Positions 6,211 to 61,310 of a stretch of 64,000 bases of DNA are shown piece by piece (within the stretch, counting starts at the first letter, position 1; every line of letters starts with the position of its first letter). The stretch is from Shigella phage ChubbyThor: the sequence record OL615013, one strand, 5' to 3'. The position numbers were made by a program, and so were the translations under genes. Under the pieces are notes generated by a model that worked only from the letters and a program-made list of their open reading frames with translations, searched no databases and was not told the DNA's origin.

Positions 6211-6280
6211 AATAAAAACCCTTTCGTTATTAAGACCGTCTTCGCGGCATATTGCTGTTCTGACCGTGTAGTGAGAACAT

Positions 6281-6309
6281 AATATACTGCATTTTTCATA
6301 AATGTAAAC
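6281..6309 (-). promoter_or_regulatory. T4-type early (sigma70) promoter: GTTTAC-17 nt-TATATT
   Basis: Minus-strand reading GTTTACatttatgaaaaatgcagTATATT with A/T-rich UP-like tract upstream; ~70 nt 5' of the 6210 start. Confidence 0.55.
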
Positions 6310-6422
6310 CACTTTTTATTGAAAAGAAGTTTACACCTTAGTGTTAAACCGCGCCCAGCCAAGCGGAGCGCGAACTTGCGTGAATATTAACTTTCAACGT
6401 CAGTATTGAAAACAAGTTTCAG

Positions 6423-7166
6423 TCACTTGTTCAGCAAGTAGAAGTTGGGGATGTCTTCTGAATATTCAGCTGGCGTGAACTCCAGTTTCACTTTGGCTTC
6501 GACGTTTTCCCGAACTTTGCGAATAACTTCTTCCCTTTGTTCAGTGGCCATGACTTCTTCAATCGCGCCGTACAGAGTTTCAACAATCACGCTGATGTAA
6601 TTGTGAATCGCCCGACAGGTGTTCTGGTCATATTCCATGTCTGGGTCAATCTTCAGTTCAACCTGATCACGCCCAACCAGCAAATGCCCGTTAGACACAT
6701 TCACGGTGTGCTTGAACACATCACTCGCTTTCATGGACACGCCATCAGCCTGCGCCAGGTAAAACTCAGTCTTGGAGAACTGCTCCAGAACATCGGCAGG
6801 GAAATCGATTTGAATATCACTACGGTGGCGGCCAAGGTAATACAAGCAATGTGAAAGTCTGAGACACGCTTCTTGTGCCATCTTCACATGGGATTTTGCG
6901 TGTTCGTATCCAGCCAAGACATCACGCAAAAAGTCTGCGATTTCCTGGCTCCCATACTTGACCTGATCTTCTAAATCCAAGGCAGTAGGGCTATCCCACT
7001 CAACGCCCAAGACATCCAAGATGTTTTGTTCACGGACAGATTTACCCTGACGATTAAACCCCAGAGTGCACCCCACTTCAAACCCGGTTGGTTCAAAGGT
7101 GGTCAGTTTCACATCAAGACGAGCTGGAGTGAAATCTAGCCCGAACAGACGATAAATTTGTGACAT
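6423..7166 (-). CDS. hypothetical protein
   Basis: ORF track 247 aa; no recognisable motif. Confidence 0.45.
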   Translation of the reverse strand: MSQIYRLFGLDFTPARLDVKLTTFEPTGFEVGCTLGFNRQGKSVREQNILDVLGVEWDSPTALDLEDQVKYGSQEIADFLRDVLAGYEHAKSHVKMAQEACLRLSHCLYYLGRHRSDIQIDFPADVLEQFSKTEFYLAQADGVSMKASDVFKHTVNVSNGHLLVGRDQVELKIDPDMEYDQNTCRAIHNYISVIVETLYGAIEEVMATEQREEVIRKVRENVEAKVKLEFTPAEYSEDIPNFYLLNK

Positions 7167-11772: not shown

Positions 11773-12264
11773 TTAACGGGTGATGATTTTACCTTCAGGT
11801 AGAATCAGACCAGGGTGGTCCAGGTTCTTCTGCATCTGTTGGATACTCTGCAGGATCACGGTAGTGTCGATGTGGCGTTTCACTTTGCGAGCCTCATCAC
11901 CATAAGAGATCTGCCCCTGAGGATCGATATAATGAGCCGACACAACCTGCAGGTCATACCCGCATTTCATCAGGTACTTGGCGATGTTGCTGACTTCCAG
12001 CGACAGGGATTCACCGTCAACGCCGATGTTGGCTGAGTAGACGATAGCGCCGTTTTCTGCTGCTGTCGGGTCAAACAACACCATACCAGCGATCGTCTGG
12101 ATCAAAGGAACTCCCTCGGTATCGAAAGCCACCTGATCGAACGCACCGATGAACTCATCCGGCACTTTACCTTCGGCATCAGAAACTGTGTGTTTCATCA
12201 GGTCCAGGACGTGTTGTTGTACTTCCTCAATCGGAGCACGTTCAACGGGTTTTTCGTTTTGCAT
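11773..12264 (-). CDS. hypothetical protein (start chosen to avoid overlap with upstream ORF)
   Basis: ORF track 11773..12375; internal Met at ~12264 follows stop of 12242..12772. Confidence 0.4.
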   Translation of the reverse strand: MQNEKPVERAPIEEVQQHVLDLMKHTVSDAEGKVPDEFIGAFDQVAFDTEGVPLIQTIAGMVLFDPTAAENGAIVYSANIGVDGESLSLEVSNIAKYLMKCGYDLQVVSAHYIDPQGQISYGDEARKVKRHIDTTVILQSIQQMQKNLDHPGLILPEGKIITR

Positions 12265-12772
12265 TACTTTTCTCCAGTTCATAATCGCGCTCCACAACAT
12301 ATTGGTAGACACGCATCTTAATATAGTCGGCACCACCTGCTGAAGACAGCACCCTCCATCCACTACTGAGGGCATTCATCTTATATTGACCAACCCCCTC
12401 TTGAAAATAACTTTTAATCTGTTCCAGCTTTCGCCCACGATGATAATAAGAGATGAGTTCACCGATAACAATACAATCGGGATAATTTTTGTCAAGGGTG
12501 TCAATATTGCGGTGGACATAGACAGGCAACACTTCTTCATCGTCGATAGGGCTGTAGCACGGGTCTACGATGACCACCTGTAGGCCATACGACAATAAAT
12601 CCTTGACGCCCAGACGACAGAACTTATAATCTTCGTGCTTCATTGCCACCTGGAGAATATTCTCTTTCTTGGCATAATCGGACAGGAAGATAAAGAAGTC
12701 TGTGTTGGGATCGGGATATTGTATAGACAATTCTTTGCCTATTTCACTAAAACAAAATCCGCGCATTTTCAT
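12242..12772 (-). CDS. hypothetical protein
   Basis: ORF track 176 aa. Confidence 0.45.
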   Translation of the reverse strand: MKMRGFCFSEIGKELSIQYPDPNTDFFIFLSDYAKKENILQVAMKHEDYKFCRLGVKDLLSYGLQVVIVDPCYSPIDDEEVLPVYVHRNIDTLDKNYPDCIVIGELISYYHRGRKLEQIKSYFQEGVGQYKMNALSSGWRVLSSAGGADYIKMRVYQYVVERDYELEKSNAKRKTR

Positions 12773-12815
12773 TCCTCGTTATAATTACTCTTACAATATA
12801 CCGTGGAGATACATT

Positions 12816-13622
12816 ATGAATTTGCCATCATTGCCCAGAACAGAAAAGACATATAAAAGCGACTTTTGGCCTACTGTGATCAAATATCGCGCCTTTACTG
12901 CGGGGCAACAAACTTTATTACTTCAGGTGTCAGATCCGCAAACGCCGATTGAAGAACGCGCGGCCATGATGGAGAGCCTCTTCAGCGAATGTGTAAATGC
13001 AGGTGCGCCATTCAGCAAACTACCAATCGGTGTTGTCGAAGAAGTGTTCATCCGTATGCGCATGATCGCCATCGGCGAATTGATGAAGATTCGCTACAAG
13101 TGCAATAATCAGGTTGAAGAAACGATCGATCTGGGAGATGGCCAAGAAAAGCGCCAGATGGTTCCCTGTGAGCAGGAACTGACTCTGCCTATCCCGCTGA
13201 ACAATGTAAAATGCATTGCTCAGGACGGCTTCCAGGAGACGTTTGACCTGCCGGGTGGCTATCACCTCAAGATGCGCCAACCTTCCTTCTCGGACGCCAC
13301 GGCGCTGTCTGATGCTGTAAGTGTTGAGATGATGCTGGCCACCTTTATCGACTGCCTGTACGATGATGACGGTCAGGTGTGGAAGGTTGAGAATCCTGAA
13401 GAAATCGGGATCACTCCGGAAGAGGCTACCGAGCGCCGCCGTGTGAAAGAAGCGTTTGTTGAGTGGGTGAAGGATAACATCGAATCAGATGTCATCGACA
13501 GCATTACGAAGAACTTCTTCCACAAAATACCGCGCATCCACTACAAGAGTTCAATCAAGTGTCCGAAGTGTGGTAAGGAACACAAGATCGAATTCAATAG
13601 CATTAATGAAATTTTCATCTAA
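12816..13622 (+). CDS. hypothetical protein with C-terminal zinc ribbon (CPKCG)
   Basis: ORF track 12702..13622; likely ATG at 12816 (MNLPSLPRTEK); plus-strand island upstream of gp5. Confidence 0.45.
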   Translation: MNLPSLPRTEKTYKSDFWPTVIKYRAFTAGQQTLLLQVSDPQTPIEERAAMMESLFSECVNAGAPFSKLPIGVVEEVFIRMRMIAIGELMKIRYKCNNQVEETIDLGDGQEKRQMVPCEQELTLPIPLNNVKCIAQDGFQETFDLPGGYHLKMRQPSFSDATALSDAVSVEMMLATFIDCLYDDDGQVWKVENPEEIGITPEEATERRRVKEAFVEWVKDNIESDVIDSITKNFFHKIPRIHYKSSIKCPKCGKEHKIEFNSINEIFI

Positions 13623-13771
13623 TGTTTGAAACTGATTTACTATCCTACTTCGTGATGTGTGATGAATTGAAGTTACACGGCTATAGCATATTTGAAATCA
13701 ACGAGTCGATGCCGTGGCATCTTGACTTGTTAACCGAAGCCCTCAAGGTCAGGTTGTCTAAGAAACAGTAA
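13622..13771 (+). CDS. small ORF (49 aa), start overlapping upstream stop (TAATG)
   Basis: MFETDLLSYFVMCDELKLHGYSIFEINESMPWHLDLLTEALKVRLSKKQ; below ORF-track size cut-off; followed immediately by terminator. Confidence 0.3.
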   Translation: MFETDLLSYFVMCDELKLHGYSIFEINESMPWHLDLLTEALKVRLSKKQ

Positions 13772-13795
13772 TCCCGCTTCGGCGGGATTTTTATT
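13771..13795 (+). terminator. intrinsic terminator (ATCCCGCttcgGCGGGATTTTT)
   Basis: 7-bp GC stem, UUCG loop, T-run. Confidence 0.7.
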
Positions 13796-14090
13796 GGCTT
13801 AACTGTAAAACAGGTTAACGCGTGCTCTCTTTACCTGAAATTGTTATAATGGGCTTGTTCCTGAGTCATTTGTTGGGGATCGTCTATTTTGAATCAGATT
13901 GTCAGTAAAATACCATTTTTCAAGGAGTGTTCTGAGGTGTACAGTTATTGCCTCGCTCTTATGCCTCCATGGCATTGGAATGGTGCTGCCTGCATAAGGC
14001 GGTGTGATGAGCGAAGCGAATAGGATCGAATAACAAATAAAATGAACGGAAGCAGAGCTTCCTATAGTATATAAGGCAAAATCCGCTGCG

Positions 14091-14098
14091 CATAAATA
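14091..14098 (+). promoter_or_regulatory. late-promoter-like CATAAATA upstream of gp5
   Basis: 7/8 match to TATAAATA ~35 nt upstream of the 14133 start. Confidence 0.4.
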
Positions 14099-14132
14099 CC
14101 TTCAAATCCTTGTTTGACAACCGGAACTCAAT

Positions 14133-17350: not shown

Positions 17351-18454
17351 TTAAGCGAATTTGAGGCCGTCGGATACTGAACCAGTCAGTACACCCATCA
17401 GATAATCAGGAGCTTCAGCTTCCTGCAATGCGTATTGCATTGTTTTATTATCTAGCCAGTCGTTAATCCATGGGACTGGGTTCTCCTTGCGAGGTTCACC
17501 AGGATATGGGTGTCCGATAGCCCCCATTCGATGGGTTGCCAGCCAGTCTACCATCTGATGAAGGATCTTGGCGTTCAGCCCCAGGATGGAACCGTCTTTG
17601 AACAGGTAGTTCGCCCACTCCTTCTCTTGATGAACCACGTCCAGGAACATCTGGGTCATCTCACCACGCAGTTCCTCACGGATGATTGCAAAGTCGGGGT
17701 CCATGCCAGGCAGGCGGTTTAGCAGCGTCTGGGTCAGGATCAGGTGATCTTGCTCATCACGGGCGATCTGGCGGATAATTTTAGCGTTACCCTCCATCTT
17801 CTGCTGGAACTGCATGAACGCCCAAGAACATGCAAAGGACACGTAGAAGCGGATACCTTCCAGTGTGTTGGCAGCAAACAGAGCACGCCAGAATGCACGT
17901 TTGGCATTCATCAGATCTTCTTGGGTGAAGACGCGCCCAGCCATGCGCATGCCGCTGTAACGAACCATGTCGTCGTAGTACACGCTGATCTGGTGGGCAC
18001 AGTCTACGATCTCTGCAACGTCCAGCACGTGGTCAAACACGATACCAGGATCGTTCACAGTATTGCGCAGGATGTGGGTGTAAGACAGAGAGTGGATGGC
18101 TTCCTGGCGCGTCCATTCAAGGACAGCGAACTGCATTTCAGGGGTGGAAGCCCATGGGCCAAACGCCTCGAACGGAGCCGCACCCTGAATAGAATCCAGC
18201 ATGGTCTGGCGCTTCAGGTTGCTGAAGTAGACGTGCTTCTCTGCTTCATTCAGAGTAGCAAAGTCGGCCTTGTCCTTGGTGATGTCTACCTCTTCAGGGC
18301 GCCAGAACTGGCTGAGGCCTTTTTCATACCACTTCTGTACGAATGGCCAGGCCACGACGTCGTAGCGCTGGATGCTCACTGGGTCACCGAAGAACGGCAG
18401 ACCAGTGTTGTTCGAGCTTGGGTCGAATACGGAGAATTGTTTCTGTTCGCTCAT
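17351..18454 (-). CDS. nrdB: ribonucleotide reductase class Ia beta subunit NrdB
   Basis: 367 aa; di-iron ligand helices (EAIHSLSYTHI etc.); directly downstream of nrdA. Confidence 0.85.
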   Translation of the reverse strand: MSEQKQFSVFDPSSNNTGLPFFGDPVSIQRYDVVAWPFVQKWYEKGLSQFWRPEEVDITKDKADFATLNEAEKHVYFSNLKRQTMLDSIQGAAPFEAFGPWASTPEMQFAVLEWTRQEAIHSLSYTHILRNTVNDPGIVFDHVLDVAEIVDCAHQISVYYDDMVRYSGMRMAGRVFTQEDLMNAKRAFWRALFAANTLEGIRFYVSFACSWAFMQFQQKMEGNAKIIRQIARDEQDHLILTQTLLNRLPGMDPDFAIIREELRGEMTQMFLDVVHQEKEWANYLFKDGSILGLNAKILHQMVDWLATHRMGAIGHPYPGEPRKENPVPWINDWLDNKTMQYALQEAEAPDYLMGVLTGSVSDGLKFA

Positions 18455-18472
18455 GTTTCTTTCCTGATTAAT

Positions 18473-18492
18473 AGGGGTGATCTCTCACCCCT
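18473..18492 (-). repeat. intercistronic stem-loop between nrdA and nrdB (AGGGGTGAtctcTCACCCCT)
   Basis: 8-bp stem, no U-tract. Confidence 0.45.
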
Positions 18493-18523
18493 GATGATAT
18501 AACGGCAGCAGATTTAGACCAAT

Positions 18524-20812
18524 TTATACAACACAGCTATCGCACTGAGTTTCCTCAGCCTGCTTCAGCTCTTCGTCTTCCTTGGCGTCCTTGTTTGTGT
18601 TGTAATACAGAGTCTTGCCACCCCACATATAGAACGACAGGATATCCTGCATCATCTTGGCGCGAGGGATCTTGCCATCTGGGTACTTCTCTGGGTCATA
18701 CCACGTGTTGGTACTGATGGACTGGTCAACCCAGCGCTGGATGACAGCAGCGGTCTTCAGGTACTCAATGCAGTCCAGGTCCCACTTGAGGTCATACAGC
18801 GGTCCAAGGGTCTCTACATCCGGAACAACCTGCTTGTATGCTCCGTCCTTGCTTCCTTTGACGCTCACCAAGCCCTTCGGTGGCTCAATGCCGTTCGTTG
18901 CGTTGAGGACTTGTGAGGAGCTTTCGGTAGGGGCTACCGCCAACAGAGTGGCATTGCGGATACCATAGGTCTTCAGGTCATCCTTCAGCTCATCCCAATC
19001 CAGCCCGTATGCCAGCCCTTCCGGCTTCTTACCATTTGGCAGGATGTCGAGTGGAAGCGGCTGAAGATCGGCGGTGACCTGCCCATTATTGTGGATGGTT
19101 CCGCGTTTACAAGCCCCGAACTTCATAGCCAGACGGTTGGATGCTTTGACCAGATAGAAGTGAAGGTGTGCCATCCACGCATCCAGCATCTCGAGGCCAG
19201 CTGGTGAACCGTAGCCCGTGAAGTTCTTGGCCAGGAAGTGAGCCACGTTCACGATACCAACACCCAGAGGACGATAGTCTTCAACAGCTTTACGAGCCTG
19301 AATCGCTGGATAGTCCTGATATTCCAACAGCATGTCCAGCGCAGACACCAACACGAACGCCACGTCTTCCATTTCCGTAGGATCTTCGAACGCCGTCAGG
19401 TTAAAGGAAGCCAGGGTACACAGAGCCACGCGTCCGTTTTCATCGTTGTACTGCTCGAACTCACGGGTCGGCAGGGTGATTTCAAGACACAGGTTGGAGC
19501 TGTAGATGGTGTCGAGGTTGAATGGGCTGTATTCATTCATGTGATCGACAAATGCGATGTAGATGCGGCCTGTGTCTGAACGCTGGTCTAACAGCATCTG
19601 GAACACTTCTTCGGCCTGCAGCTTCTTAGAACGAACCAGGCCTGCATCGGCGGCCTTGATCATGTTCTCATACAGAGTACGGAACTTGTCAACGTCGGCG
19701 AAGTATGCTTCGTACATTTCGCGGTTGTCTTTCGGGTCGAACAGATACAGAGGCTGCTTGGCAACCAGGCGCTCAAACATCACGCGGTTGATCTGAATAC
19801 CGTAGTCGATACGGCGTTCGCGGTTTTCTTCAGTGCCACGGTTATTCTTCAGTACAACGACGTCATCGAACTGGTAATGCCACAGAGGGATGTACGCTGT
19901 CGCCGCACCACCACGAATGCCGCCCTGGGAGCACGACTTGAGCGCCCCAGTGAGATACTTGATGAATGGGATCAGGCCTGTGTGAACCATCTCTCCACCG
20001 CGAATAGGACTGCCAATCCCACGGATAGCCCCGACGTCAAAGCCGATACCCGCACGTTTGGACACATAGTCAACGATGGTCTTGGCCGTTGCGTTGATAG
20101 AGTCCAGGGTGTCACCAGTTTTGATCAGGACACAGGAACTGAACTGACGGGTAGGAGTACGAACACCTGCCATAATCGGGGTGGGAAGACTGAACTTGCC
20201 TGTGCTGGCATATTCATAGAACTTCTTCACCATCTCCAGGCGGCTGTCTTTGTCCCAGTTAGAGAACAACGCCATGGCGATGCCCATGTACATGACCTGT
20301 GGGGTTTCGTAGAAGATCTTGCTGTCTTTCTTGGAACGGTCGCGCAGCAGATACTTCTCTGTCAGCTGGCCCATGGCCGCCCACGTGAAGTTCTTATCGC
20401 GTTTGTGGTTAATGACATCGTTCAGCTCGTTGAACTCTTCGGTCGTGTAGAGATCAAGGAACTCACGATCATACACGCGCTGTTTGATGTTCTTGACGAA
20501 GATATCCAGCAGGTGAGGCGGCTTGTACTGGCCATAGACAGCCTTGCGCAGATCATATGACTTCAGACGAGCAGCCACATACTGGTAATTGGGTTTGTCT
20601 ACAGAGATCAGTGAAGCCGCAGCCTGGATGAGGATATCCTGAATGCGATCTGTTCTCATGTTGTCGGTGAACTGAATCTTCGATGCAGCGATTACCTCTG
20701 ACATTGATACACCAGTCAGGCCGTCACATGCGCGGTCTACGACTGCGTGTAGTTTCTCAATATCAAAGGGGACAGAAGATCCGTCACGTTTAATAACGTT
20801 AATTTCGCTCAT
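18524..20812 (-). CDS. nrdA: ribonucleotide reductase class Ia alpha subunit NrdA
   Basis: 762 aa; ATP-cone N-terminus, SNLCLEITLPT active-site loop, C-terminal CxxC...C tail. Confidence 0.9.
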   Translation of the reverse strand: MSEINVIKRDGSSVPFDIEKLHAVVDRACDGLTGVSMSEVIAASKIQFTDNMRTDRIQDILIQAAASLISVDKPNYQYVAARLKSYDLRKAVYGQYKPPHLLDIFVKNIKQRVYDREFLDLYTTEEFNELNDVINHKRDKNFTWAAMGQLTEKYLLRDRSKKDSKIFYETPQVMYMGIAMALFSNWDKDSRLEMVKKFYEYASTGKFSLPTPIMAGVRTPTRQFSSCVLIKTGDTLDSINATAKTIVDYVSKRAGIGFDVGAIRGIGSPIRGGEMVHTGLIPFIKYLTGALKSCSQGGIRGGAATAYIPLWHYQFDDVVVLKNNRGTEENRERRIDYGIQINRVMFERLVAKQPLYLFDPKDNREMYEAYFADVDKFRTLYENMIKAADAGLVRSKKLQAEEVFQMLLDQRSDTGRIYIAFVDHMNEYSPFNLDTIYSSNLCLEITLPTREFEQYNDENGRVALCTLASFNLTAFEDPTEMEDVAFVLVSALDMLLEYQDYPAIQARKAVEDYRPLGVGIVNVAHFLAKNFTGYGSPAGLEMLDAWMAHLHFYLVKASNRLAMKFGACKRGTIHNNGQVTADLQPLPLDILPNGKKPEGLAYGLDWDELKDDLKTYGIRNATLLAVAPTESSSQVLNATNGIEPPKGLVSVKGSKDGAYKQVVPDVETLGPLYDLKWDLDCIEYLKTAAVIQRWVDQSISTNTWYDPEKYPDGKIPRAKMMQDILSFYMWGGKTLYYNTNKDAKEDEELKQAEETQCDSCVV

Positions 20813-20871
20813 TTATATTTCCTGGATTTATTGGTGAATGAACTCCACCCCAATAATAAACTCTTCGGGGC

Positions 20872-21531
20872 TTATTGACTTACAAACTCTAACCACTCTG
20901 GGTCGGCTTTGGGATTCCACCCAGATTTAAATTTATTAATCATTGTGAAATGCGGAGTCGTCTTGTTTTTGAACCCAAACGCTTTCGCCATGAACGTGCA
21001 ACCTTTTTGGTTGCACAACCACCAATCATAATATTCGTCGGCGCGTTTCCATATATCCAAAGACTCTTTGGTGGCATGGTTACTTTCCCAAGGTTGTTTT
21101 ATCACGCAGATATTGTTTTCCTTCAAACGTTTAGACTGTATTTCCCGCAAATGAGGATACTTTACATGTGTCTGTTTCATTTGATCGGAACGAATTTTCC
21201 TCAAATTAGGGTTGTCTTTGTACATCTGTTTATTGGAATGAGAAAGTTTTCTCCGCAACCAACCGAATAATTTGTTACAAGATCTACCGGAGAATTCATT
21301 GTTTACGCACATAGCATTAGCTGCAAATGCTAATTTGAAATTTTTGGGATATATTTTGACTAACAATTGATGTGCCAAATAATGTTCTTCTGGTGTCAAC
21401 TCCACCAGATTATGTTTGTCATCTTTCCCTCCCATACATCTAGGGATAATATGGTGGGTTTCAGAATAACCAACCAATGAACGGGTCTTGGCTCTTTGTA
21501 TCAGAGAGTCATAGATATTTTGATAATTCAT
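20872..21531 (-). mobile_element. free-standing HNH homing endonuclease gene
   Basis: 219 aa; ETHHIIPRCMGG...HN...EEHYLAH HNH motif; AT-richer than flanks; sits between nrdA and phoH. Confidence 0.7.
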
Positions 21532-21600
21532 GATTAGTCTCGGAACATATTATACGCCGCCCTCGTAGATTGAAGGCGGCGGGGAGTGTTGGTGAGTTAC

Positions 21601-22443
21601 TTAAATGTCGTACAGATCGTTGACTTCCAGCATCAGGCGGGTGAAGTCACCACGCCCGTTGCGGTCGGACTTGTCGAATTCGATGATACTGAACGGCTGG
21701 ACCCATTCAGGGTACTCATCACCGACACCAACACCATCGATCTTCAGAGTTCCGGCCTCCAGCTTGGCGTTGAAGTCGCGGAAGGAACCGACGTACCTTT
21801 CCAGGGCGCTATCACGCAGGCGCTTGTTGGACTGTTTGATGTCACCGTTGACAAAGATGTAGGTTGAATCAGATGCGCGGGTCAGCAGGTTCTTCAGCTG
21901 CTCCATATCGCATTCTTGGGCTTCTTCGATGATCAAGAAGGTGTCGTCAAAGGTCATCCCCTTGATGGTCTCCAGATCCTGGATCTCGATGATCCGCTTC
22001 TCCCACAGGTAGTTGAAGAAACCGTCGCTGCCAGTATCGGTCTTCAGCACCTTCTTCAACGTCTGAATCAGGGGCATCAGGTATGGCATGAGCTTTTCGT
22101 ACGTGTCGCCAGGACGGAAGCCTGCTGTCTGACCTGTTGGCAGCGGAGAGCGCGTGATGACGATCTTGCTGACAACTTTATCGATCAGTAGCTTGGCGGC
22201 GGCTGAGGCACCACAGTACGATTTACCTGTACCAGCAGGACCGATCGCGATGGTGAGGTTTTCTTCAAGAGCAGATTGATATGCGAGGTTCTGATTCTCT
22301 GAGAGGCCATTGAACGGAGCGATTCTAAAGTCACCTTTGGAGAACTTCATCCAGTCATCTTCTTTCTGAACAGTCTCCTTCTTACGTGCTGACTTGGTCT
22401 TGCCCGCTGGCTTCATACTTACAACTTTGGTGGCAGATTGCAT
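21601..22443 (-). CDS. phoH: PhoH-like ATPase
   Basis: Walker A IAIGPAGTGKSY and PhoH-type C-terminal blocks; start taken at internal Met (~22443). Confidence 0.8.
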   Translation of the reverse strand: MQSATKVVSMKPAGKTKSARKKETVQKEDDWMKFSKGDFRIAPFNGLSENQNLAYQSALEENLTIAIGPAGTGKSYCGASAAAKLLIDKVVSKIVITRSPLPTGQTAGFRPGDTYEKLMPYLMPLIQTLKKVLKTDTGSDGFFNYLWEKRIIEIQDLETIKGMTFDDTFLIIEEAQECDMEQLKNLLTRASDSTYIFVNGDIKQSNKRLRDSALERYVGSFRDFNAKLEAGTLKIDGVGVGDEYPEWVQPFSIIEFDKSDRNGRGDFTRLMLEVNDLYDI

Positions 22444-22522
22444 GGGAACCTTCCTATATCTCAGGGGTGTCATCAACCTTAATTAAGGCGACACACCCAG
22501 CATACCCGAGGGGTGGATAAAG

Positions 22523-22544
22523 AAAAAGGCCGTTTCCGGCCTTT
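22523..22544 (-). terminator. intrinsic terminator (GGCCGgaaaCGGCC + U-run on minus RNA)
   Basis: Between endolysin stop and phoH start. Confidence 0.6.
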
Positions 22545-22547
22545 GAG

Positions 22548-23360
22548 TTAACTGAAACTCTTGTATGCAGCAGCGAGCTTCGTGTCGTACTGGTTCTTGG
22601 CATACGCCGGACCATTATAGCGCCGCGCAAACTCAGCCCAGTTCTTGTCCTTCAGAGCCTGCCAGAGCTTGGCGTCGGCCTTGATGAACTTCACGAATGC
22701 CATCAGATGAGCACGTTCGCCCGTCAAGAAGTCATTGAACATCTCCTTGGCGTTGGCGTACCCACAGACCTGGCAGTTGAAGCCCATGATCTGGAAGAGG
22801 CCGTAAGAGGCGCTCTCGTACGCACAATCCTCGTCGATGTTAATGGCTGCATGGAGTCGATCCAACTCCGCGTCGCCGCCCGTGTACCCGCCTGCCACTG
22901 GACTGACAAGGGTTGGATACATTTGACCAGCCGCGTTCGCCCGAGCCTGCCCGAACTTCGCCATCATCTTCTTGTACATGATGTGACGCTCAAACAACGT
23001 CTTGATCTTACCAGACTTGGTGAAGCCAGTGCCACGGGATTCAACCTGATTGACTGCCTTCACAGAGGCGAGGTCAACTCCCAGCTGGTTGGCTGCGTCG
23101 ATAAGGTCAGCCTCAGTCAGGTGATCCTGATGGGCGTCTCCGGCGTTGCGAATAGCATAGGAGGTCTTTGGACCCACAATACCATCAATGACAAGCCCCG
23201 CACCCGCCTGAACAGTCTTGACAGCGTTCTCTGTTGCCTTACCAAAGATGCCGTCAGCGACGAGGGTGAAGCCGATTTTGTTGAGGCTCTGCTGAAGTGA
23301 TTTGACTTCAGTGCCACGGTTGCCAAGTTTTAGAATGGCCATAAGAAAATACCTCCGCAA
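22548..23360 (-). CDS. endolysin: two N-terminal peptidoglycan-binding repeats plus C-terminal N-acetylmuramidase-like domain
   Basis: 270 aa; repeats GFTLVADGIFGKATENAVKTVQ / GLVIDGIVGPKTSYAIRNAG; catalytic region GLFQIMGFN. Confidence 0.75.
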   Translation of the reverse strand: MRRYFLMAILKLGNRGTEVKSLQQSLNKIGFTLVADGIFGKATENAVKTVQAGAGLVIDGIVGPKTSYAIRNAGDAHQDHLTEADLIDAANQLGVDLASVKAVNQVESRGTGFTKSGKIKTLFERHIMYKKMMAKFGQARANAAGQMYPTLVSPVAGGYTGGDAELDRLHAAINIDEDCAYESASYGLFQIMGFNCQVCGYANAKEMFNDFLTGERAHLMAFVKFIKADAKLWQALKDKNWAEFARRYNGPAYAKNQYDTKLAAAYKSFS

Positions 23361-23411
23361 TGAATGCGAAGGTATTTAAAGTGAAAGTGAACTACTTGAG
23401 GAACTGCTGCA

Positions 23412-23711
23412 CTACATCGATTCGAGCATGGAGTTATATTTGGCTATCTTTCGACCAAAGCCTTGCTTCATGCCATTATAAGCACCGACCGCAGTGTCAT
23501 ACCCCTTTGTGGACATGTACTGATTTATGTCGTCGGTGCGCGCTAACCAATGACCTTCCTGCTGCCTGTAAATCAGAGTCAGGATAGAAGACTCGGACGT
23601 TACCATGATTCTGCCCGTAATCCTGATTACGGATGATACCCAGACTTTGCCCGTCACTTCTTTAAGGTGGGCGCAAGAGGCTTCGGCCAATTGCTCAAGA
23701 GTCATTTTCAT
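23412..23711 (-). CDS. hypothetical protein
   Basis: ORF track 99 aa. Confidence 0.4.
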   Translation of the reverse strand: MKMTLEQLAEASCAHLKEVTGKVWVSSVIRITGRIMVTSESSILTLIYRQQEGHWLARTDDINQYMSTKGYDTAVGAYNGMKQGFGRKIAKYNSMLESM

Positions 23712-27220: not shown

Positions 27221-27790
27221 TTAGACAGGCTTGACGCCGAGGAACTTGGCGATATCAGCAGCCAGGTTTTTACCCTTGCTGATGTCGTGTTCTTTACCGC
27301 CGACAGTAACGATCACATATGGGTCGTCTTCACCGCCGAAGTTCACAGACACAGCCTTACCATGGCCGGGGATGCCAGAGTATTCGAACTCAGTGCGACC
27401 ACTCTTGCGAGACTTGCCAACACCCAGTGCTTTACCGATCATCTTGTCCATGTTCGCCAGTTCCTGAGCATAGGCTTCGGTCACCTGGCCTTTGTCAGCA
27501 GACTTGCCAAAGAAGAATTCGAAGCCGTCATGGACAGCAACGACTTCCTGACCTTGGGAGATACCGTGAGTCTGGTCTGGGGTCAGCTTCACCTTGATGG
27601 TATTGCCGTTGGTTAACTCCAGGTTGTAGACATCCGCCTGATTGTCAGGAGTGATCTGGGTCACGGTAGCACCGGAGCACCACTGAGTGCCGTCAGCTTG
27701 CTTGGTGATGGATACGCTTTTGCCCTGGACACCAGCATGGGTCTGAGGCTGAGCAGCTTGTTCTTTAAAGTATTGAAGGAACGGTTTCAT
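27221..27790 (-). CDS. hypothetical protein, probable late (virion-associated?) product
   Basis: 189 aa; minus-strand TATAAATA ~26 nt upstream of start. Confidence 0.45.
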   Translation of the reverse strand: MKPFLQYFKEQAAQPQTHAGVQGKSVSITKQADGTQWCSGATVTQITPDNQADVYNLELTNGNTIKVKLTPDQTHGISQGQEVVAVHDGFEFFFGKSADKGQVTEAYAQELANMDKMIGKALGVGKSRKSGRTEFEYSGIPGHGKAVSVNFGGEDDPYVIVTVGGKEHDISKGKNLAADIAKFLGVKPV

Positions 27791-27815
27791 CTCGAATCTC
27801 CTCGGGGATTTCAGT

Positions 27816-27823
27816 TATTTATA
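27816..27823 (-). promoter_or_regulatory. T4-type late promoter TATAAATA (minus strand), overlapping a GC hairpin
   Basis: Plus-strand tatttata; hairpin AAGCCCCcgaaGGGGCTT immediately 3' on plus. Confidence 0.5.
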
Positions 27824-27865
27824 AGCCCCCGAAGGGGCTTTATTCTGTTCAAGTCCAGCTAGTTT

Positions 27866-29917
27866 TCACCAAACATTCAGAAATAGTGCATGACCCATAC
27901 CACCGTTTGACTGAAGAGACCATTTTCCTGTTTCTCTTCCCAGGCGTTCTATGTTGTTGAGTTGGTTTATCGACAATTCAGAAGAGTCAAATAATACCAC
28001 ATCACGTTTTTTGGGTTCTCTCAAATAAGGTCCGAGATCAATATCAATCATCCGGTTTATAAATTCTACTACTTCGGCTTGTTTCTTTGGTAATGTGATA
28101 TCCGGATTGTTTGTCACTTTCTCCAAGCGTTTATTTTCTGCGCTTATCATGGATAGCATAATTTGTGTAACTTTGCCGTCAGACAAGTTGTAATCGTTCC
28201 AAATCACTTCACCTTTATCCGTGATGGTTATATCATTCAAGAAAACCTGGTTTGGGTTGTATGTCTGACTTTTCAACTGTTGGAGGTTTCTGGAAAGATA
28301 TTCCATTTTTGATGAGATTTCATTAATCACACTCTGGACCAAATCTTTGTTCAAAGGAAGTTCATATGTCTTCGGATTGTTCAGGGTACGCCCTTTCTGA
28401 GAGACAATTGGGGTGAATGCAACTTTGCCTTTGTCATGATAATAGGTTACGTTGGTTATCATAGAAGTACCGGCATATTTTCCCGTTTCGGGGAAATTGA
28501 TTCCAGACCAAGTGATGGACATGCCGTTCTCTGTTTCCCCGAACACTGATGCGTTTTTCGGGATTCGCAGGTCTTTGGAACTGATAGTTGGGCCAGAAGA
28601 ATACTTCTTATACAGGTCGTGGAACTGGGCGACAATCGCCTGCGCCGCACTTTTGAAGTCGCGGTATTTCAGATCTGCTGCTTTATCTACCAGTTTACCA
28701 TCTTTATAAACCAGGTAATCTGATTTGATGGTGGTGTCAGAAGGTTCCCAAGCAGCGCCAGTAGCACTGATCAAAATCTCACTGAACTTGGAAGACAGGA
28801 CGAAAACATGATCGTCTTTGCGGCGTATATTAGAATCAAGTTTGTTGATCTCAGCCCAAACTTTGTCCGCCTTCGCTTTCGCCACATAGTTGTTACGGGC
28901 TGTGGTAGAAAGACCTGGAGGAGGGATAATGTCATCACCCTGGATACTGGTTGCCCCCACCCCAAATTCGACGTATGCGATGATCTTACCACCAGACTTC
29001 AGTTCCCAACCCATACCCTGACGGTCAGACGCTGCCATCAGTTTGCGGTCCACTTCACCACGACCAACATACTCTTTGTTGAACACAGTTACCTGGGCGA
29101 TGGTTTGGGTGCGGGCAATCTTCGCCATTGCGCCGTCTTTGACCATGATGGCCAGATCATTGGAACTCAGAGTCACGTCGTTGGCACCGACTACCTTCAC
29201 AACAGAACTGAAGATACCGTTGGATTTTGCCATGACGGAGATGTTCCAGTCGGGGTTGTTTGACGAAGTCCCCACATCAGGGGTGTTGTTCTGAACCGGA
29301 ACGTCACCGACCTTGTCCGGGTCATCCCAGGTGATACCCTGCATCTTCGGACCGTCGAATACCTGAGCCGGATCTTTACCCTTACGAACGAGCCACACAT
29401 AACCACGGTCAGGGACAGGCGCGTAGGTCAGGTCCATCACGTTCAGCTTCTGCTTCAGGCCGGACTGGCGGATGATCTTAGGAATCAGGGTCATCCCGCG
29501 TTCCAGCGCTTTCTTAGAGAAGTTGACAGCATAACCATCGATGGTCTTGCCCAGAGGGGTCGCCAGGAACTGCTTGGTCGCTTCGATCATGGAGGCGATG
29601 ACGCGCATTGGGTTCTTGAAGCGAGCGATGGCATCAGGATAAACAGAGCCGCGCTTCTGGCCGATGAAGACCTGACGAACGTTCTTGCCCAGCCCCTGAG
29701 GGGTATAGAACTGAATGCGGTATTCCTTTTCATCTTCGTCGATGAAGGTGAAGAACACATCGCCTGCGTTCTTCTTGCCCATGGTCAGCTCATACGGAGC
29801 AGAGTTGAACGCTTCGTCCAACTGATCCTTTTCCTGCATGAACTGAAGGAAATTTGGCTTTGACATTTTGTATCTCCTGATGGAATTATGGCGGTTTCTT
29901 CTAATTAGCGAAACCAA
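27866..29917 (-). CDS. large hypothetical protein (about 666 aa from internal start MSKPNFLQF)
   Basis: ORF track 683 aa; no recognisable catalytic motif. Confidence 0.5.
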   Translation of the reverse strand: MVSLIRRNRHNSIRRYKMSKPNFLQFMQEKDQLDEAFNSAPYELTMGKKNAGDVFFTFIDEDEKEYRIQFYTPQGLGKNVRQVFIGQKRGSVYPDAIARFKNPMRVIASMIEATKQFLATPLGKTIDGYAVNFSKKALERGMTLIPKIIRQSGLKQKLNVMDLTYAPVPDRGYVWLVRKGKDPAQVFDGPKMQGITWDDPDKVGDVPVQNNTPDVGTSSNNPDWNISVMAKSNGIFSSVVKVVGANDVTLSSNDLAIMVKDGAMAKIARTQTIAQVTVFNKEYVGRGEVDRKLMAASDRQGMGWELKSGGKIIAYVEFGVGATSIQGDDIIPPPGLSTTARNNYVAKAKADKVWAEINKLDSNIRRKDDHVFVLSSKFSEILISATGAAWEPSDTTIKSDYLVYKDGKLVDKAADLKYRDFKSAAQAIVAQFHDLYKKYSSGPTISSKDLRIPKNASVFGETENGMSITWSGINFPETGKYAGTSMITNVTYYHDKGKVAFTPIVSQKGRTLNNPKTYELPLNKDLVQSVINEISSKMEYLSRNLQQLKSQTYNPNQVFLNDITITDKGEVIWNDYNLSDGKVTQIMLSMISAENKRLEKVTNNPDITLPKKQAEVVEFINRMIDIDLGPYLREPKKRDVVLFDSSELSINQLNNIERLGRETGKWSLQSNGGMGHALFLNVW

Positions 29918-43657: not shown

Positions 43658-44488
43658 TCATTGGAATTCAACTCCATACCTTTCAAGCCATTTATCACAA
43701 GTTAAAGGATCCCAACCATTATCTAACCTTCGAATAATCGGATTCACTTTAGCCCAGATCCCAGAAGAATTGGAACCGAATACTTCTTTAATGGCTTCTC
43801 CCTTGGTCTTACCTTTCAATATATGGTAATGTATGTGGGCTGCCCAACACCACCAATTATCCCTATCCGGAGTCCATCTTGGCTTCTCCCAAGGCATTTG
43901 CTCTCTGGAGGTTCTGGTAAAAGCCTCAACACGTTTCCTTTCTTGGTCCGATGTCAATTTATTGGTTAGGCTCTTTCCATAACAGTGATGGTGCTCTCCT
44001 CTCTTGACACCTGCATTTCTCTTCGCAAAGAATTGTTTCAGTTCAGGGTCTTCCTTGCGCTTGTCTTCATAGAATTTCAGCAGTGAATCTGAAGTTGCAT
44101 CTTTGGCTGCCTGAGACTTCTTTTTACCATACATCGGGTTGTTAGCCCCTCTGTTCTCTTCGGACAATCTCGCGGCGTATTTCTTACGCATTTTGGCGAA
44201 GAGATGTGAATTAACTCTGTGGCCATTCCTTCTCAGGATCATCAGCGCCTTTACCATACACGTATCCGGCAGCGCCAGAGCGAGACACACGTGAGCAATA
44301 TAGTGGACGCGGTGTGGTAATTTGATTAAATTGTTCTTATCTTTCTTGAATTGAGGAAATAGGGCGGCTGGAAGGATGTGGTGAAATTCTCCTTCCCCGT
44401 TGTAATCTGAATAGGCTGAAAGCAATTTCACATATTTGCCTACAAAGTGCGGTTTGCCACCTATTGTTAAAAGATATTCTCTTTTCAT
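43658..44488 (-). mobile_element. free-standing HNH homing endonuclease gene
   Basis: 276 aa; EFHHILPAALFP...HRVHYIAH HNH motif plus basic repeat region. Confidence 0.65.
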
Positions 44489-44946
44489 TTGTAGTGACTA
44501 TCACTGACCGTCCGGTACTTCACACCCTTGAACTGCTTGGCGACCTTGACGAACTCCATCGCTGGCATGCCCACTTTGTAGACCTTGATGCGCTGGCGGT
44601 CATCCATGTTCAGGGCGGCGACATAGCGGTGTGAGCCGTCGACCACATAGTTATCAGAAGACACCCAAACCCGACCCATGGGCTTCTTGTTTCTGATGTT
44701 CTTCATGATCTTCCAGACCTTCATCTTGTTGATTTCGTTCTGGGTGAGACGGAGCGATTTGATAGGAACCTGACCAGCGTCGATGGTGATGCCAAGTTCC
44801 TCCAAGTAGTCATGGAACGCCTGCTGCTTGTCATCGTCGATCTGTGGCATAGAAGAACGAGAAAGCCCGAGGTTTCCAACAGGAATCCTCAGGCCGTTGA
44901 TAATGTTCAACCAGTCTATGAAGGAAGACATGAACATGAGATTCAC
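44485..44946 (-). CDS. ParB/sulfiredoxin-fold nuclease-domain protein
   Basis: 153 aa; LRLTQNEINK and VVDGSHRYVAA (DGxHR-type motif). Confidence 0.4.
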   Translation of the reverse strand: MNLMFMSSFIDWLNIINGLRIPVGNLGLSRSSMPQIDDDKQQAFHDYLEELGITIDAGQVPIKSLRLTQNEINKMKVWKIMKNIRNKKPMGRVWVSSDNYVVDGSHRYVAALNMDDRQRIKVYKVGMPAMEFVKVAKQFKGVKYRTVSDSHYK

Positions 44947-60451: not shown

Positions 60452-61120
60452 TTACTCAATCTGTGCGCCGACGAAGTAATTGATCGTCGCATCGGAGGAC
60501 TGGAAGTTCACCATCTGCAGTTCGGCACAGGCGCGCAGAGTGTAGTTGCCTTCGATCATCTTCAGGTTGGCAACGTCCAGCGGCATTACGAAGTCCGGCA
60601 ACGCGGTTTCACCCAGCTCAACAGTGTAGTTGTTGGAGTTATCCAGGGTAGTGGTGGTCGCAACCAGACGAGTTTTGCCGCCCTGAGCAACCAGACGCAC
60701 TGTCTTGTGACCGAGGGTAGAACAGGCGCGGGTCAGTTCTTTCATCTTCTCTGGAGTGATGATCGCTTCAAAGTCGACAGACGGCAGTTCAATGGTGTCA
60801 GCCGGAACGACAGTGAGTTCTTTAGCAGAACGCCAGAATTGCAGCTGAGAGCTTTCGCCTTTCAACAGGATGTAGTCCTGATGGAATTCGGCTTTACCGC
60901 CTTTGAAGGAAGGCAGGCGCTGGATGGCCAGAAGTTTGGTCAGGTCCAGGATAGGGAACTCAAACGGGAAGTCTTCTTCGATCTGTGCCACGGCGATAAC
61001 AGTAGACGAATCGTTGATGCTGCGCAGCATCTTACCCGGTGTCAGAACGATAGATGGGTTGATGGTCTCAAAGTTGGCCAGCAACTGGAGTGTACGTTCG
61101 GAGAGAGTGATCTCTTGCAT
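60452..61120 (-). CDS. 45: sliding clamp gp45
   Basis: 222 aa; N-terminus TLQLLANFETINPSIVL (cf. T4 TALLKNFATINSGIML); upstream of gp44 as in T4. Confidence 0.7.
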   Translation of the reverse strand: MQEITLSERTLQLLANFETINPSIVLTPGKMLRSINDSSTVIAVAQIEEDFPFEFPILDLTKLLAIQRLPSFKGGKAEFHQDYILLKGESSQLQFWRSAKELTVVPADTIELPSVDFEAIITPEKMKELTRACSTLGHKTVRLVAQGGKTRLVATTTTLDNSNNYTVELGETALPDFVMPLDVANLKMIEGNYTLRACAELQMVNFQSSDATINYFVGAQIE

Positions 61121-61226
61121 TTATGTATCCTCAAAATATAGTGGGGTTCAAGTCATGTTTGACGCAATCTAGTATCGCTGTGTTGTGCTTATAGAACAAG
61201 TGGCAAATTGCGCTACGCGTTATTAA

Positions 61227-61246: not shown

Positions 61247-61310
61247 GGACTTTATTAAAGATAATAACCTTTATTAATCCTATTCGCTTCGCTCATAAAA
61301 CAAATACTCG

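Follow-up and report, generated by a model that had tools for sequence, protein, structure and literature searches.

The feature examined here is very probably a free-standing homing-endonuclease cassette of 744 nucleotides (nt) that has spread among phages of the family Ackermannviridae by intronless homing, with co-conversion of the DNA on either side. The cassette holds one fixed site in this family, within the 5' leader of nrdA and directly after a hairpin and TATAATA sequence that follow phoH. Its gene probably encodes an enzyme of two modules, an N-terminal HNH nuclease of the T4 Mob type with a beta-beta-alpha-metal fold and a C-terminal recognition module. Below, 'the window' denotes the entire 64,000-nt stretch of Shigella phage ChubbyThor DNA (record OL615013) that was analysed, and the features of the locus are collected in Table 1.

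The open reading frame (ORF) and its motif string (ETHHIIPRCMGG...HN...EEHYLAH) are exactly as described in the original prediction, which was made from the sequence before any comparison with other genomes. The ORF is free-standing, as it lies in the intergenic space between the phoH stop codon and the nrdA start codon, and the ChubbyThor record annotates a 100% identical 219-aa protein as a 'putative HNH endonuclease'. This cannot be considered a chance ORF, because the probability of 219 stop-free codons at the composition of the cassette is ~3e-7, database homologs number 2465 at E <= 1e-5, and dN/dS among orthologs is ~0.07-0.12. A dN/dS ratio near 0.1 also indicates purifying selection on the protein, and every ortholog translated retains an intact ORF of 219-220 aa. 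An apparently truncated copy in rabagast, annotated as a 187-aa protein, was rejected as such: the DNA, in a region identical to S118, encodes the full 219-aa ORF, and the shorter form is therefore a start-codon annotation artefact. The predicted local enrichment in AT is evident across positions 20800-21600, where GC content in 400-nt windows is 0.365-0.395 versus ~0.52 in the flanks and 0.505 in the whole window. Comparison with the flanking genes, which had been suggested as a check, likewise shows the HNH gene to be foreign in composition, whichever genus carries it (GC3 of 0.32-0.44 versus 0.45-0.68 in the flanks).

Table 1. Features of the phoH-nrdA locus in the window.
Feature	Position	Strand	Details
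nrdA (762 aa), uninterrupted, directly downstream of the cassette	18524..20812	-	Pfam ATP-cone, Ribonuc_red_lgN, Ribonuc_red_lgC 1-522/523
Clustered synonymous differences from MK-13	20786..20795	-	three (20786, 20789, 20795), in nrdA codons 6-10
Whole cassette (segment specific to occupied alleles)	20804..21547	-	744 nt, GC 0.382; alignments to empty and occupied alleles
Cassette-borne first three nrdA codons	20804..20812	-	ATG AGC GAA (MSE)
Cassette-borne spacer, HNH stop codon to nrdA	20813..20871	-	small hairpin, 20847-20871; nrdA ribosome-binding site AGGAAA, 20818-20823
HNH ORF	20872..21531	-	ATG to TAA; 219 aa plus stop
C-terminal W-rich helical module, aa 141-219	20875..21111	-	
N-terminal Mob-type HNH catalytic module (predicted), ~aa 1-110	21202..21531	-	homology to MobB/MobE, conserved columns, AF2 model
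Cassette-specific leader of the HNH ORF	21532..21547	-	TGTTCCGAGACTAATC, with a weak GAGA Shine-Dalgarno-like element
Element common to both alleles, just upstream of the cassette	21548..21581	-	10-bp GC-rich hairpin after phoH (21555-21581), then TATAATA (21548-21554); cassette starts immediately after
phoH-like ATPase gene, directly upstream of the cassette	21601..22443	-	Pfam PhoH, 2.6e-38; an 843-nt CDS in relatives
Patch of substitutions in the phoH 3' end	21649..21715	-	8 differences from MK-13 and Ag3, with identical sequence around

The bounds of the cassette were established by aligning the window to empty alleles (MK-13 and Ag3) and to other occupied alleles (pSal-SNUABM-02 and Coodle), and pairs from Taipeivirus and Kuttervirus agree with them. 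The locus had been described as an insertion, which holds in that a discrete cassette occupies a fixed site, but it is not a pure insertion: 35 nt of the empty allele (AAACCTGCTTATAACACAAACCGAGGATCGCT plus ATG), including the nrdA start codon, have been exchanged for the cassette. In all four genera, the native nrdA leader and ATG are replaced by a ribosome-binding site, an ATG and two extra codons that belong to the cassette. NrdA proteins from occupied alleles begin with MSE, MSD, MSQ or MNE followed by I-N/K, whereas those from the empty alleles of Agtrevirus, Limestonevirus, Taipeivirus and Kuttervirus begin with MIN(V/I)IKRDG, and, within a genus, the annotated nrdA of occupied genomes exceeds that of empty genomes by 6 nt. 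The annotated nrdA start in Coodle is an internal Met codon. The displaced leader is unusually conserved among empty alleles (CCTGC.TATAACACAAACCGAGGATCGCT-ATG), with a variant form, GTAAACAAACCCGAGGAACACC, in Limestonevirus. We regard nrdA as the likely beneficiary or target region of the cassette.

The element that borders the cassette on the phoH side occurs in all four genera, whether the allele is empty or occupied, and its RNA is predicted to fold with a dG of -22.1 kcal/mol (z -4.56). No sigma-70-type promoter was called on the minus strand at this TATAATA element, and a consensus promoter scan found none on the gene's strand near the cassette. We infer that the HNH gene is expressed by read-through within a phoH-nrdA transcription unit. 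pSal-SNUABM-02 and Coodle conserve the short leader of the ORF, and comparable GAGA elements precede the gene in May, UTK0005 and S118. The hairpin in the spacer before nrdA is weak by itself (z -0.57). The two strands of its stem covary from genus to genus (CCCCGA/TTGGGG in the window, CCTCTAT/ATAGAGG in May and CCCCAAT/ATTGGGG in UTK0005). Terminator-like sites inside the HNH gene were found by consensus scan on the opposite strand only.

An endonuclease encoded within an intron or intein was considered and rejected. An Rfam scan of the whole window returned no family at threshold, group I introns included. The Pfam domains confirm that nrdA and nrdB are continuous, as the original prediction had held, and the intein site of NrdA (Cys442 codon, 19487-19489), which carries an intein in Limestonevirus NrdA, is empty here.

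Relatives of the window with an empty site were anticipated, and they are found among its nearest neighbours; a complete lack of empty alleles, which would have spoken against the prediction, is clearly not what is seen. MK-13, Ag3, P46FS4 and SKML-39, the closest relatives, all carry empty alleles, as do JA15, Menlow, Vi01 and most others; some of these empty relatives share 97-99% identity with the window here. The nrdA flank of MK-13 is 99.8-100% identical to that of the window up to ~20 nt from the insertion. Occupied alleles are present in 22 records (15 distinct phages) of ~280 Ackermannviridae records, or ~8%, and always between phoH and nrdA. These carriers belong to Agtrevirus, Limestonevirus (one of 19 Dickeya phages), Taipeivirus and Kuttervirus, with the addition of Yersinia phage CAU_YEP3, and the insertion boundaries are identical in all four genera. 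The site is therefore fixed, and its occupancy is polymorphic among close relatives.

Comparison of the cassette with its surroundings in these relatives shows that it has recently moved between phage genomes. Cassettes that are 99.6-100% identical reside in carriers whose adjacent nrdA genes are 87.9%, 96.6%, 98.1% and 99.6% identical to that of the window. Up to position 20785, nrdA is 99.8% identical in MK-13 (2 mismatches in 985 nt) and 87.6% identical in pSal-SNUABM-02, and yet the ends of the cassette are 100% identical to those of pSal-SNUABM-02 despite its divergent nrdA. In L010, one of the carriers, the backbone resembles pSal02, but a conversion tract of ~1.8-2.1 kb centred on the cassette resembles the window and MK-13. 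Two smaller patches are putative co-conversion tracts on either side of it. The cluster of three nrdA differences lies in sequence that is otherwise 99.8-100% identical to MK-13, and the same three variants accompany the cassette in L010 and L008, which they do not do in L005, L007 or L009. The patch in the phoH 3' end is common to carrier L009 and is shared in part with Coodle and pSal-SNUABM-02.

The HNH gene and its flanks are discordant in synonymous divergence, and the discrepancy runs both ways. The divergence of the HNH gene is higher between the window and Coodle (dS of 1.30, versus 0.22 for phoH and 0.28 for nrdA) and between UTK0005 and S118 (2.56, versus 0.107 for phoH), and it is lower between the window and pSal02 (0.25, versus 0.32 and 0.53 for the flanks). 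The nrdA genes of UTK0005, which is occupied, and Vi01, which is empty, differ by a dS of 0.003. The history of the cassette is thus discordant with that of the flanking genes. Nevertheless, much of this history may be vertical, with homing mostly within genera, because cassette identity between genera is 82%, 75% and 70% and its divergence broadly follows genus boundaries.

The predicted catalytic module contains a beta-beta-alpha core at aa 24-60 that includes H26/H27, C32, N41, H50 and H54. In an alignment of 72 sequences, N41, H50 and H54 are invariant, while conservation at H26, H27 and C32 is 90% or higher. An AF2 model (strands at 24-27 and 42-45 and a helix at 47-60, pLDDT ~95) places the conserved residues on the scaffold typical of the superfamily. 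The protein matches T4 MobB over aa 1-109 (50% identity, E 3e-32), RB9 MobE over aa 1-113 (47% identity, E 6e-30) and PHROG 655, 'homing endonuclease' (3.8e-66), and five places in the T4 record match it. More general searches gave marginal results. The match to Pfam HNH (PF01844; aa 23-43, E 0.0031) is below the gathering score at 18.1 versus 21.4 bits, and an NCBIfam search gave nothing useful, just a 14.7-bit partial match to IscB. A PDB sequence search returned marginal HNH matches (McrA and Cas8-HNH, E 0.37-0.47) over the pattern HH..P....GG......N...L....H, and a Foldseek structure search returned a local, non-significant HNH match (probability 0.9, E 0.7). Assignment to the IPA-HNH class of ICP1 phages was rejected, as T4 is without that class (PMC10448857) and the protein is clearly Mob-like; its aa 1-63 match ICP1 genes at 51%.

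Beyond ~aa 115, no similarity to MobE or MobB was detected. The C-terminal module is instead characterized by conserved residues that include several tryptophans (P147, W148, T154, W161, A164, W171, F201, G204, W205, P207, D210 and W213), and it is common to paralogs in Ackermannviridae and to PHROGs 26163, 25551 and 7504. A Pfam search with the C-terminal half alone gave no match, and the module has more than 2000 relatives while lacking a Pfam family or a solved homolog. We presume that it probably supplies DNA binding and sequence specificity. A literature search that included the ChubbyThor papers found no publication on this protein.

The original prediction had placed the gene in the nrd neighbourhood favoured by homing endonucleases of T4-type phages. 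The homology to Mob domains and the adjacency to nrdA support this comparison, but the phage itself belongs to Ackermannviridae (Agtrevirus-like) and is not T4-type, as established by the identity of the protein to that of ChubbyThor. The parallel with T4, in which mobE lies beside nrdA, is therefore one of analogy and domain homology rather than of the same locus. MobE of T4 and other T-even phages has a homologous N-terminal HNH domain, and both genes are free-standing beside nrdA, oriented with their neighbours, sporadic among relatives and apparently without a promoter of their own. T4 MobE is mobile and promoterless, nicks nrdB, co-converts flanking sequence and drives its own inheritance (PMC2790892). 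The two differ in their C-terminal halves, which are unrelated, and in site, which is nrdA|nrdB in Straboviridae and the phoH|nrdA leader in Ackermannviridae; mobE overlaps the nrdA stop codon, whereas the present cassette replaces the nrdA start. Of the two Mob proteins compared directly, MobB scores better and falls in the same PHROG 655. However, it is longer (264 aa), has another C-terminal region and resides at another locus (alpha-gt/alpha-gt.2), and Table 1 of PMC2988022 gives both its activity and its target as not determined or unknown. Intronless homing, and the host regulatory signals that can be embedded in such genes, have been reviewed (PMC2988022).

Closer relatives in architecture exist within the family. 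A search of the window with the HNH protein (tblastn) found one other relative only, a full-length member of the same family at a different site (43658..44488) that aligns over both modules (hhalign probability 96.5%, E 8e-10). Ag3 orf00096 is 48% identical over its full length, and a member of the family in Ag3 sits between phoH and an endolysin gene. These PHROG 655 paralogs, along with the 'F-Lim' genes of Limestonevirus, have the same Mob-type HNH and W-rich organization but are inserted at other sites, and NUMOD3 repeats are added in some of them. We know of no Ackermannviridae paralog of this family that has been biochemically characterized. An ORF under another AT-rich island of the window, near position 12400, belongs to a PHROG of no assigned function and is not a nuclease. 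I-HmuI of Bacillus phage SPO1 is an intron-encoded, monomeric HNH enzyme that nicks one strand, and its extended DNA-binding tail is modular, with NUMOD-type helices and a C-terminal helix-turn-helix. By analogy, it is a plausible working model for the present protein; the resemblance is one of architecture only, and sequence and fold searches gave no significant match to I-HmuI.

The original prediction of a free-standing homing-endonuclease gene is thus supported at the level of sequence, where everything expected of such a gene was observed: the empty alleles, the ~8% occupancy, the decoupled history, the conversion tracts, the conserved motif under purifying selection and the homology to MobB and MobE. 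We propose that homing would begin when one cell is infected by both an occupied and an empty phage. The predicted enzyme would nick or cut the empty allele at or near the 35-nt nrdA leader, a target position that we deduce only from what the cassette displaces, and the break would be repaired by recombination from the occupied genome, copying the cassette with variable lengths of phoH and nrdA flank. The occupied allele would be immune to cutting because the leader and start-codon segment is replaced. Retention of the cassette would also be favoured, since it supplies the ribosome-binding site, the ATG and two codons of nrdA, and its simple deletion would disable this important gene.

A more specific version of this proposal, which we offer tentatively and consider rather doubtful at present, is that the displaced conserved leader is itself the recognition or cleavage site, and that the W-rich module reads it as a new sequence-specific DNA-binding domain. 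If so, a single substitution would give the element both self-immunity and an anchor against deletion. This reading predicts a cut within ~50 bp on either side of CCTGCTTATAACACAAACCGAGGATCGCTATG, and a resistant target at the variant leader of Limestonevirus would go with the low occupancy there (1/19). Free-standing T4 endonucleases often cut hundreds of base pairs from their insertion sites (PMC2988022).

The same locus could also be explained if the cassette were a passive passenger whose nuclease no longer drives mobility, or instead cuts competitor or host DNA, with the mosaics produced by a high rate of general recombination at conserved flanks between co-infecting Ackermannviridae. Such recombination between co-infecting phages could yield mosaics without any nuclease, the activity of the HNH protein is itself a prediction, cassette-unrelated mosaics occur in the same loci (for example, at nrdA 18950-19100 and at 23350-23700), and the breakpoints beside the cassette differ among carriers. 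We nevertheless judge this explanation unlikely. The strong purifying selection extends over the whole protein, including the catalytic residues, and argues for a working enzyme; moreover, the patches that were exchanged have the cassette at their centre, several backbones have acquired this same cassette, and the homologous MobE of T4 drives its own inheritance (PMC2790892).

It is very improbable that the gene has been a vertical resident since the ancestor of the family, with empty alleles arising by many independent deletions. The insertion boundaries shared by four genera, and cassette identities that rank between genera as the flank identities do, would fit such a history. However, a conserved stretch of 35 nt is found in empty alleles and is missing from occupied ones, and therefore neither allele is a simple deletion of the other. 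Near-identical cassettes in backbones that are 88-99.6% identical, and a pair of alleles with saturated dS within Kuttervirus backgrounds that differ in phoH by a dS of 0.107, are also difficult to reconcile with vertical descent, which would require that ~92% of genomes have lost the gene. A domesticated nuclease that serves phage housekeeping (regulation of the nrd operon, DNA packaging or degradation of host DNA) rather than itself would be expected to be intact and under purifying selection, as this gene is, and its position as the first cistron ahead of nrdA could suggest a role of this kind. We find this barely credible for a gene that is missing from ~92% of related phages, including relatives that are 97-99% identical in the region, that retains a foreign composition in every host genus, and that has a full-length paralog elsewhere in the window and another family member between phoH and the endolysin gene in Ag3.

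It is already established that homing-endonuclease genes are numerous in Ackermannviridae and vary in their presence (PMC8472413, PMC10791037): Aglimvirinae genomes are reported to contain 14-25 of them (PMC8472413), and their presence in Agtrevirus does not follow phylogeny (PMC10791037). GenBank records also already label this gene as an HNH or homing endonuclease, and one more ordinary selfish gene of the T4 Mob type matters little on its own. The locus is, however, an exceptionally clear case in nature of intronless homing beyond the T4 group, with empty and occupied pairs that have near-identical flanks in two genera, a site that is fixed across four genera, natural conversion tracts, and an element that gives an important gene a new translation start. 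It is therefore a convenient system for the study of homing, co-conversion and marker exclusion in phages under development for biocontrol and therapy. The locus may also serve to define the specificity of the predicted C-terminal DNA-binding module, and to explain the local mosaicism that is seen around nrd genes when these genomes are compared.

The original prediction placed a free-standing HNH homing endonuclease gene between nrdA and phoH, and both the open reading frame (ORF) and its quoted motif, ETHHIIPRCMGGKDDKHNLVELTPEEHYLAH, are present there. Given a probability of ~3e-7 for 219 stop-free codons at the composition of the cassette (the segment specific to alleles carrying this ORF), and 2465 homologs with E <= 1e-5 in a database search, we consider the ORF to be a gene rather than a chance occurrence. 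The AT-richer local sequence that had been noted is evident (GC 0.365-0.395 over 20800-21600, 0.382 in the cassette, versus ~0.52 in the flanks and 0.505 in the window), and nrdA and nrdB appear uninterrupted, as proposed: the Pfam domains of NrdA run end to end, and no Rfam family, group I introns included, reached threshold anywhere in the window. The reference to T4-type phages was inaccurate, in that the flanks resemble Agtrevirus (Ackermannviridae) phages MK-13, Ag3, P46FS4 and SKML-39 (96.9-97.1% identity over 25 kb), and the protein is that of ChubbyThor (100% identity), annotated as 'putative HNH endonuclease'. Other AT-rich islands (GC < 0.42 in 500-nt windows) are located at ~6100-6600, 12400-12900, 13500-14100, 27700-28600 and 60900-61600. 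The single ORF scanned among these, 12242..12772 at the island near 12400, belongs to PHROG 3957 (function unknown) and is not a nuclease. The island at 27700-28600 falls mostly within the 3' stretch that encodes the C-terminal region of a 683-aa ORF on the minus strand (27866..29917).

Features of the window discussed in the text
Feature	Coordinates	Strand	Remarks
nrdB	17351..18454		next after nrdA
nrdA	18524..20812	minus	762 aa; downstream of HNH ORF; Pfam ATP-cone, all-alpha and barrel domains
Small hairpin	20847-20871	minus	after HNH stop; energetically weak, z -0.57
HNH ORF	20872..21531	minus	ATG to TAA, 219 aa
phoH-like gene	21601..22443	minus	upstream of HNH ORF; Pfam PhoH 2.6e-38
ORF in block 23350-23700	23412..23711	minus	99 aa, PHROG 10386, function unknown
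Second homing-endonuclease gene	43658..44488	minus	276 aa; PHROG 655 family, 1.7e-43

The HNH protein is covered over its full length by PHROG 655, 'homing endonuclease' (3.8e-66). Its Pfam HNH score of 18.1 bits lies below the gathering score of 21.4, and neither an NCBIfam search nor fold searches with the full model gave an informative match. In a 72-sequence alignment, residues N41, H50 and H54 do not vary and conservation is at least 90% at H26, H27 and C32, and the AlphaFold model (pLDDT 89.7) includes a beta-beta-alpha core at aa 24-60. The first ~110 aa share 50% identity with MobB of T4 (E 3e-32; the T4 locus was taken as mobB by its position beside alpha-gt, PMC2988022 Table 1) and 47% with MobE of T-even phage RB9 (E 6e-30), both encoded by free-standing HNH genes, and similarity to either is absent past aa ~115. 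The same two-module architecture is found in the product of the second homing-endonuclease gene (hhalign probability 96.5%, E 8e-10), which combines a Mob-type HNH, a Pfam NUMOD3 and the same W-rich C-terminal module; the start of this gene and the stop of the ParB-like ORF upstream of it (44485..44946) overlap. It is also found in Ag3 orf00096 (L002 3487-4179, 230 aa, 48% full-length identity), which sits between phoH and the endolysin gene. The corresponding spacer (~22444-22547 in the window) is empty in the window and MK-13, and thus one endonuclease family occupies neighbouring intergenic sites in different isolates.

Alignment with empty and occupied alleles (phoH-nrdA junctions without and with the cassette) delimits the occupied-specific segment to 20804-21547 (744 nt). 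In the sense of the genes, the phoH stop is followed by a GC-rich 10-bp hairpin (dG -22 kcal/mol, z -4.6), TATAATA, the cassette, and then ATT AAC..., where nrdA continues. The cassette starts with a 16-nt leader containing a weak ribosome-binding element, GAGA; then come the HNH ORF, the small hairpin, AGGAAA and ATG AGC GAA. Empty alleles instead carry past TATAATA a 32-nt leader of their own (AAACCTGCTTATAACACAAACCGAGGATCGCT in MK-13) and then ATG ATT AAC. Therefore, the gene does lie between phoH and nrdA as predicted, but the cassette is a replacement of the empty-allele segment rather than a pure insertion. It supplies nrdA with a different ribosome-binding site and ATG and lengthens it by two codons, such that the annotated gene is 6 nt longer in occupied genomes and NrdA begins with MSE, MSD, MSQ or MNE rather than MIN(V/I)IKRDG. 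This replacement was seen in all four genus pairs examined, and the empty leader is strikingly conserved across three of the genera (Agtrevirus, Taipeivirus and Kuttervirus) and deviates somewhat in Limestonevirus. The pairing of the small hairpin is maintained by stem covariation in three genera (CCCCGA/TTGGGG in the window, CCTCTAT/ATAGAGG in May, CCCCAAT/ATTGGGG in UTK0005), and the S118-type allele lacks the hairpin. Possible roles are those of a terminator, processing site or stabiliser.

Querying with the cassette recovered orthologs from 22 records, which represent 15 distinct phages; in every case the element sits between phoH and nrdA. Carriers are pSal-SNUABM-02 and the ChubbyThor-type window in Agtrevirus; Coodle alone among 19 Dickeya phages (Limestonevirus); May, 0507-KN2-1, UPM 2146 and Croc_ER14 in Taipeivirus; SJ2, UTK0005, S115, S118, rabagast, Mutine, FSL SP-029 and AKM_ssTn in Kuttervirus; and Yersinia phage CAU_YEP3. 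The empty junction used as query matched 282 Ackermannviridae records, and in an even sample of 60 of these, only five have a ~1500-nt span and the others one of ~800 nt. Empty alleles are thus plentiful among relatives, where the original prediction suggested looking for them, which decisively argues against universal presence of the gene. Every ortholog translated is an intact ORF of 219-220 aa, this site yielded no decayed copy, and dN/dS is 0.07-0.12 for the whole gene and for each third. A 187-aa rabagast protein considered as a truncated copy proved to be a start-codon annotation artefact.

Several observations indicate that the cassette moves. The window nrdA (19801-20785) is 99.8% identical to that of the empty MK-13 and only 87.6% to that of the occupied pSal-SNUABM-02, with which the cassette ends are 100% identical. 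Beside the cassette, the window differs from MK-13 at three synonymous positions clustered in codons 6-10 of nrdA (20786, 20789 and 20795) and by an eight-substitution patch at the phoH 3' end (21649-21715), and matches it outside these patches, which look like short conversion tracts. Six more contigs carry the cassette, five of them assembled from public sequencing runs and one taken from an NCBI assembly. In these, the cassette is 97.7-100% identical (99.6-100% in five), and adjacent nrdA, where covered, ranges from 87.9% (L010) through 96.6% (L006), 98.1% (L005) and 99.0% (L009) to 99.6% (L007) identity to the window; the variants at the junction do not always accompany the cassette. Contig L010 is pSal-SNUABM-02-like in nrdA (20100-20450) and the endolysin gene, and window/MK-13-like from ~20450 across the cassette to ~22250 or further, a patch of ~1.8-2.1 kb with the cassette at its centre.

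Synonymous divergence (dS) of the HNH gene and its flanks is discordant in both directions. Values for HNH, phoH and nrdA 5' are 1.30, 0.22 and 0.28 for the window versus Coodle; 2.56, 0.107 and 0.91 for UTK0005 versus S118 (both Kuttervirus); and 0.25, 0.32 and 0.53 for the window versus pSal-SNUABM-02. For UTK0005 (occupied) versus Vi01 (empty), phoH gives 0.058 and nrdA 5' 0.003. The HNH gene is itself a mosaic, with ends identical to pSal-SNUABM-02 and only 77-88% identity over 21100-21400, where residues NNEFSG and NLRKIRS are common to the window and the S118 allele. Its GC3 is 0.32-0.44 in every host genus versus 0.45-0.68 in the flanks.

Among the possible readings, intronless homing in the sense established for the seg and mob genes of T4 (PMC2988022) has the best support. 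During mixed infection, the enzyme would nick or cut an empty allele, and recombinational repair would copy in the cassette with variable lengths of flank. The characterised homolog, MobE, is mobile and lacks a promoter; it nicks nrdB on a specific strand and gives polymorphisms among the progeny that are consistent with double-strand-break repair (PMC2790892). Purely vertical descent with repeated loss is contradicted by the cassette-end identity to pSal-SNUABM-02 despite an MK-13-like nrdA, the apparent conversion tracts, the mismatch among carrier contigs, the L010 patch, the discordant dS and an empty-specific 35-nt segment. Passive hitchhiking on general phage recombination seems improbable to us, as it leaves unexplained both the strong selection on catalytic residues and the cassette-centred exchange patches, and a housekeeping role is unlikely for a gene missing from ~92% of relatives.

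If homing operates, the recognition or cleavage site may lie in or close to the displaced leader, because this leader and its ATG are the sole systematic difference between empty and occupied alleles (nrdA codons beyond ATT AAC show no allele-specific differences), and because some carriers have MK-13-type sequence as close as ~20 nt to the cassette on the nrdA side and ~100 nt on the phoH side. This suggestion is a weak one, given that later recombination can erase tracts and that the free-standing enzymes of T4 frequently cleave away from their insertion sites. Since the cassette carries the nrdA translation start, a simple deletion could not remove it cleanly and recombination with an empty allele would be needed, a parallel to the host promoters embedded in such genes of T4, which favour gene retention (PMC2988022). 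No sigma-70-like promoter was found near the cassette on the strand of the HNH gene, whose expression presumably relies on read-through or on the TATAATA element that both alleles share.

Other variable sites surround this locus. NrdA of the Limestonevirus phages Coodle and JA15 has a ~305-aa insertion that bears intein hallmarks (...SSNL|CFTGET...VHN|CLEI...) and encloses an HNH-like motif, and annotated nrdA is 3201-3303 nt in intein-bearing Limestonevirus versus 2289 nt in the window, which is intein-free at the Cys442 codon (19487-19489); a second type of mobile element has therefore hit nrdA in relatives. The nrdB-nrdA spacer, only 69 nt in the window (18455-18523) and MK-13, holds an extra ~96-97-aa ORF in Ag3 (L002 1-157), Vi01 (L023 1695-1982) and a further carrier contig (L006 3424-3717), a further indel polymorphism of the nrd cluster. 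Just beyond the endolysin gene, block 23350-23700 is only ~25-50% alignable to MK-13, Ag3, pSal-SNUABM-02 and Coodle, with 97-100% identity on both sides, and forms another replaceable small-gene slot. In S118, whose cassette allele is deeply divergent, the entire neighbouring nrdA (L022 2023-4305) shares only 72-90% identity with that of Vi01 (L023), versus 95-98% for phoH and 99-100% for parts of nrdB. This bubble of divergence spans one gene, has the endonuclease gene as its border and is reminiscent of the 'HEG-island' idea (PMC10448857).

Aglimvirinae genomes reportedly carry 14-25 homing endonuclease genes at variable positions (PMC8472413), variation of the 'homing nucleases' in Agtrevirus is uncorrelated with phylogeny (PMC10791037), and several GenBank records already label orthologs of the present gene as homing endonucleases. 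Boundaries that stay fixed over four genera, a cassette that supplants the start of nrdA, and naturally occurring conversion tracts appear to be undescribed so far at this site; all the same, they represent ordinary homing-endonuclease biology.
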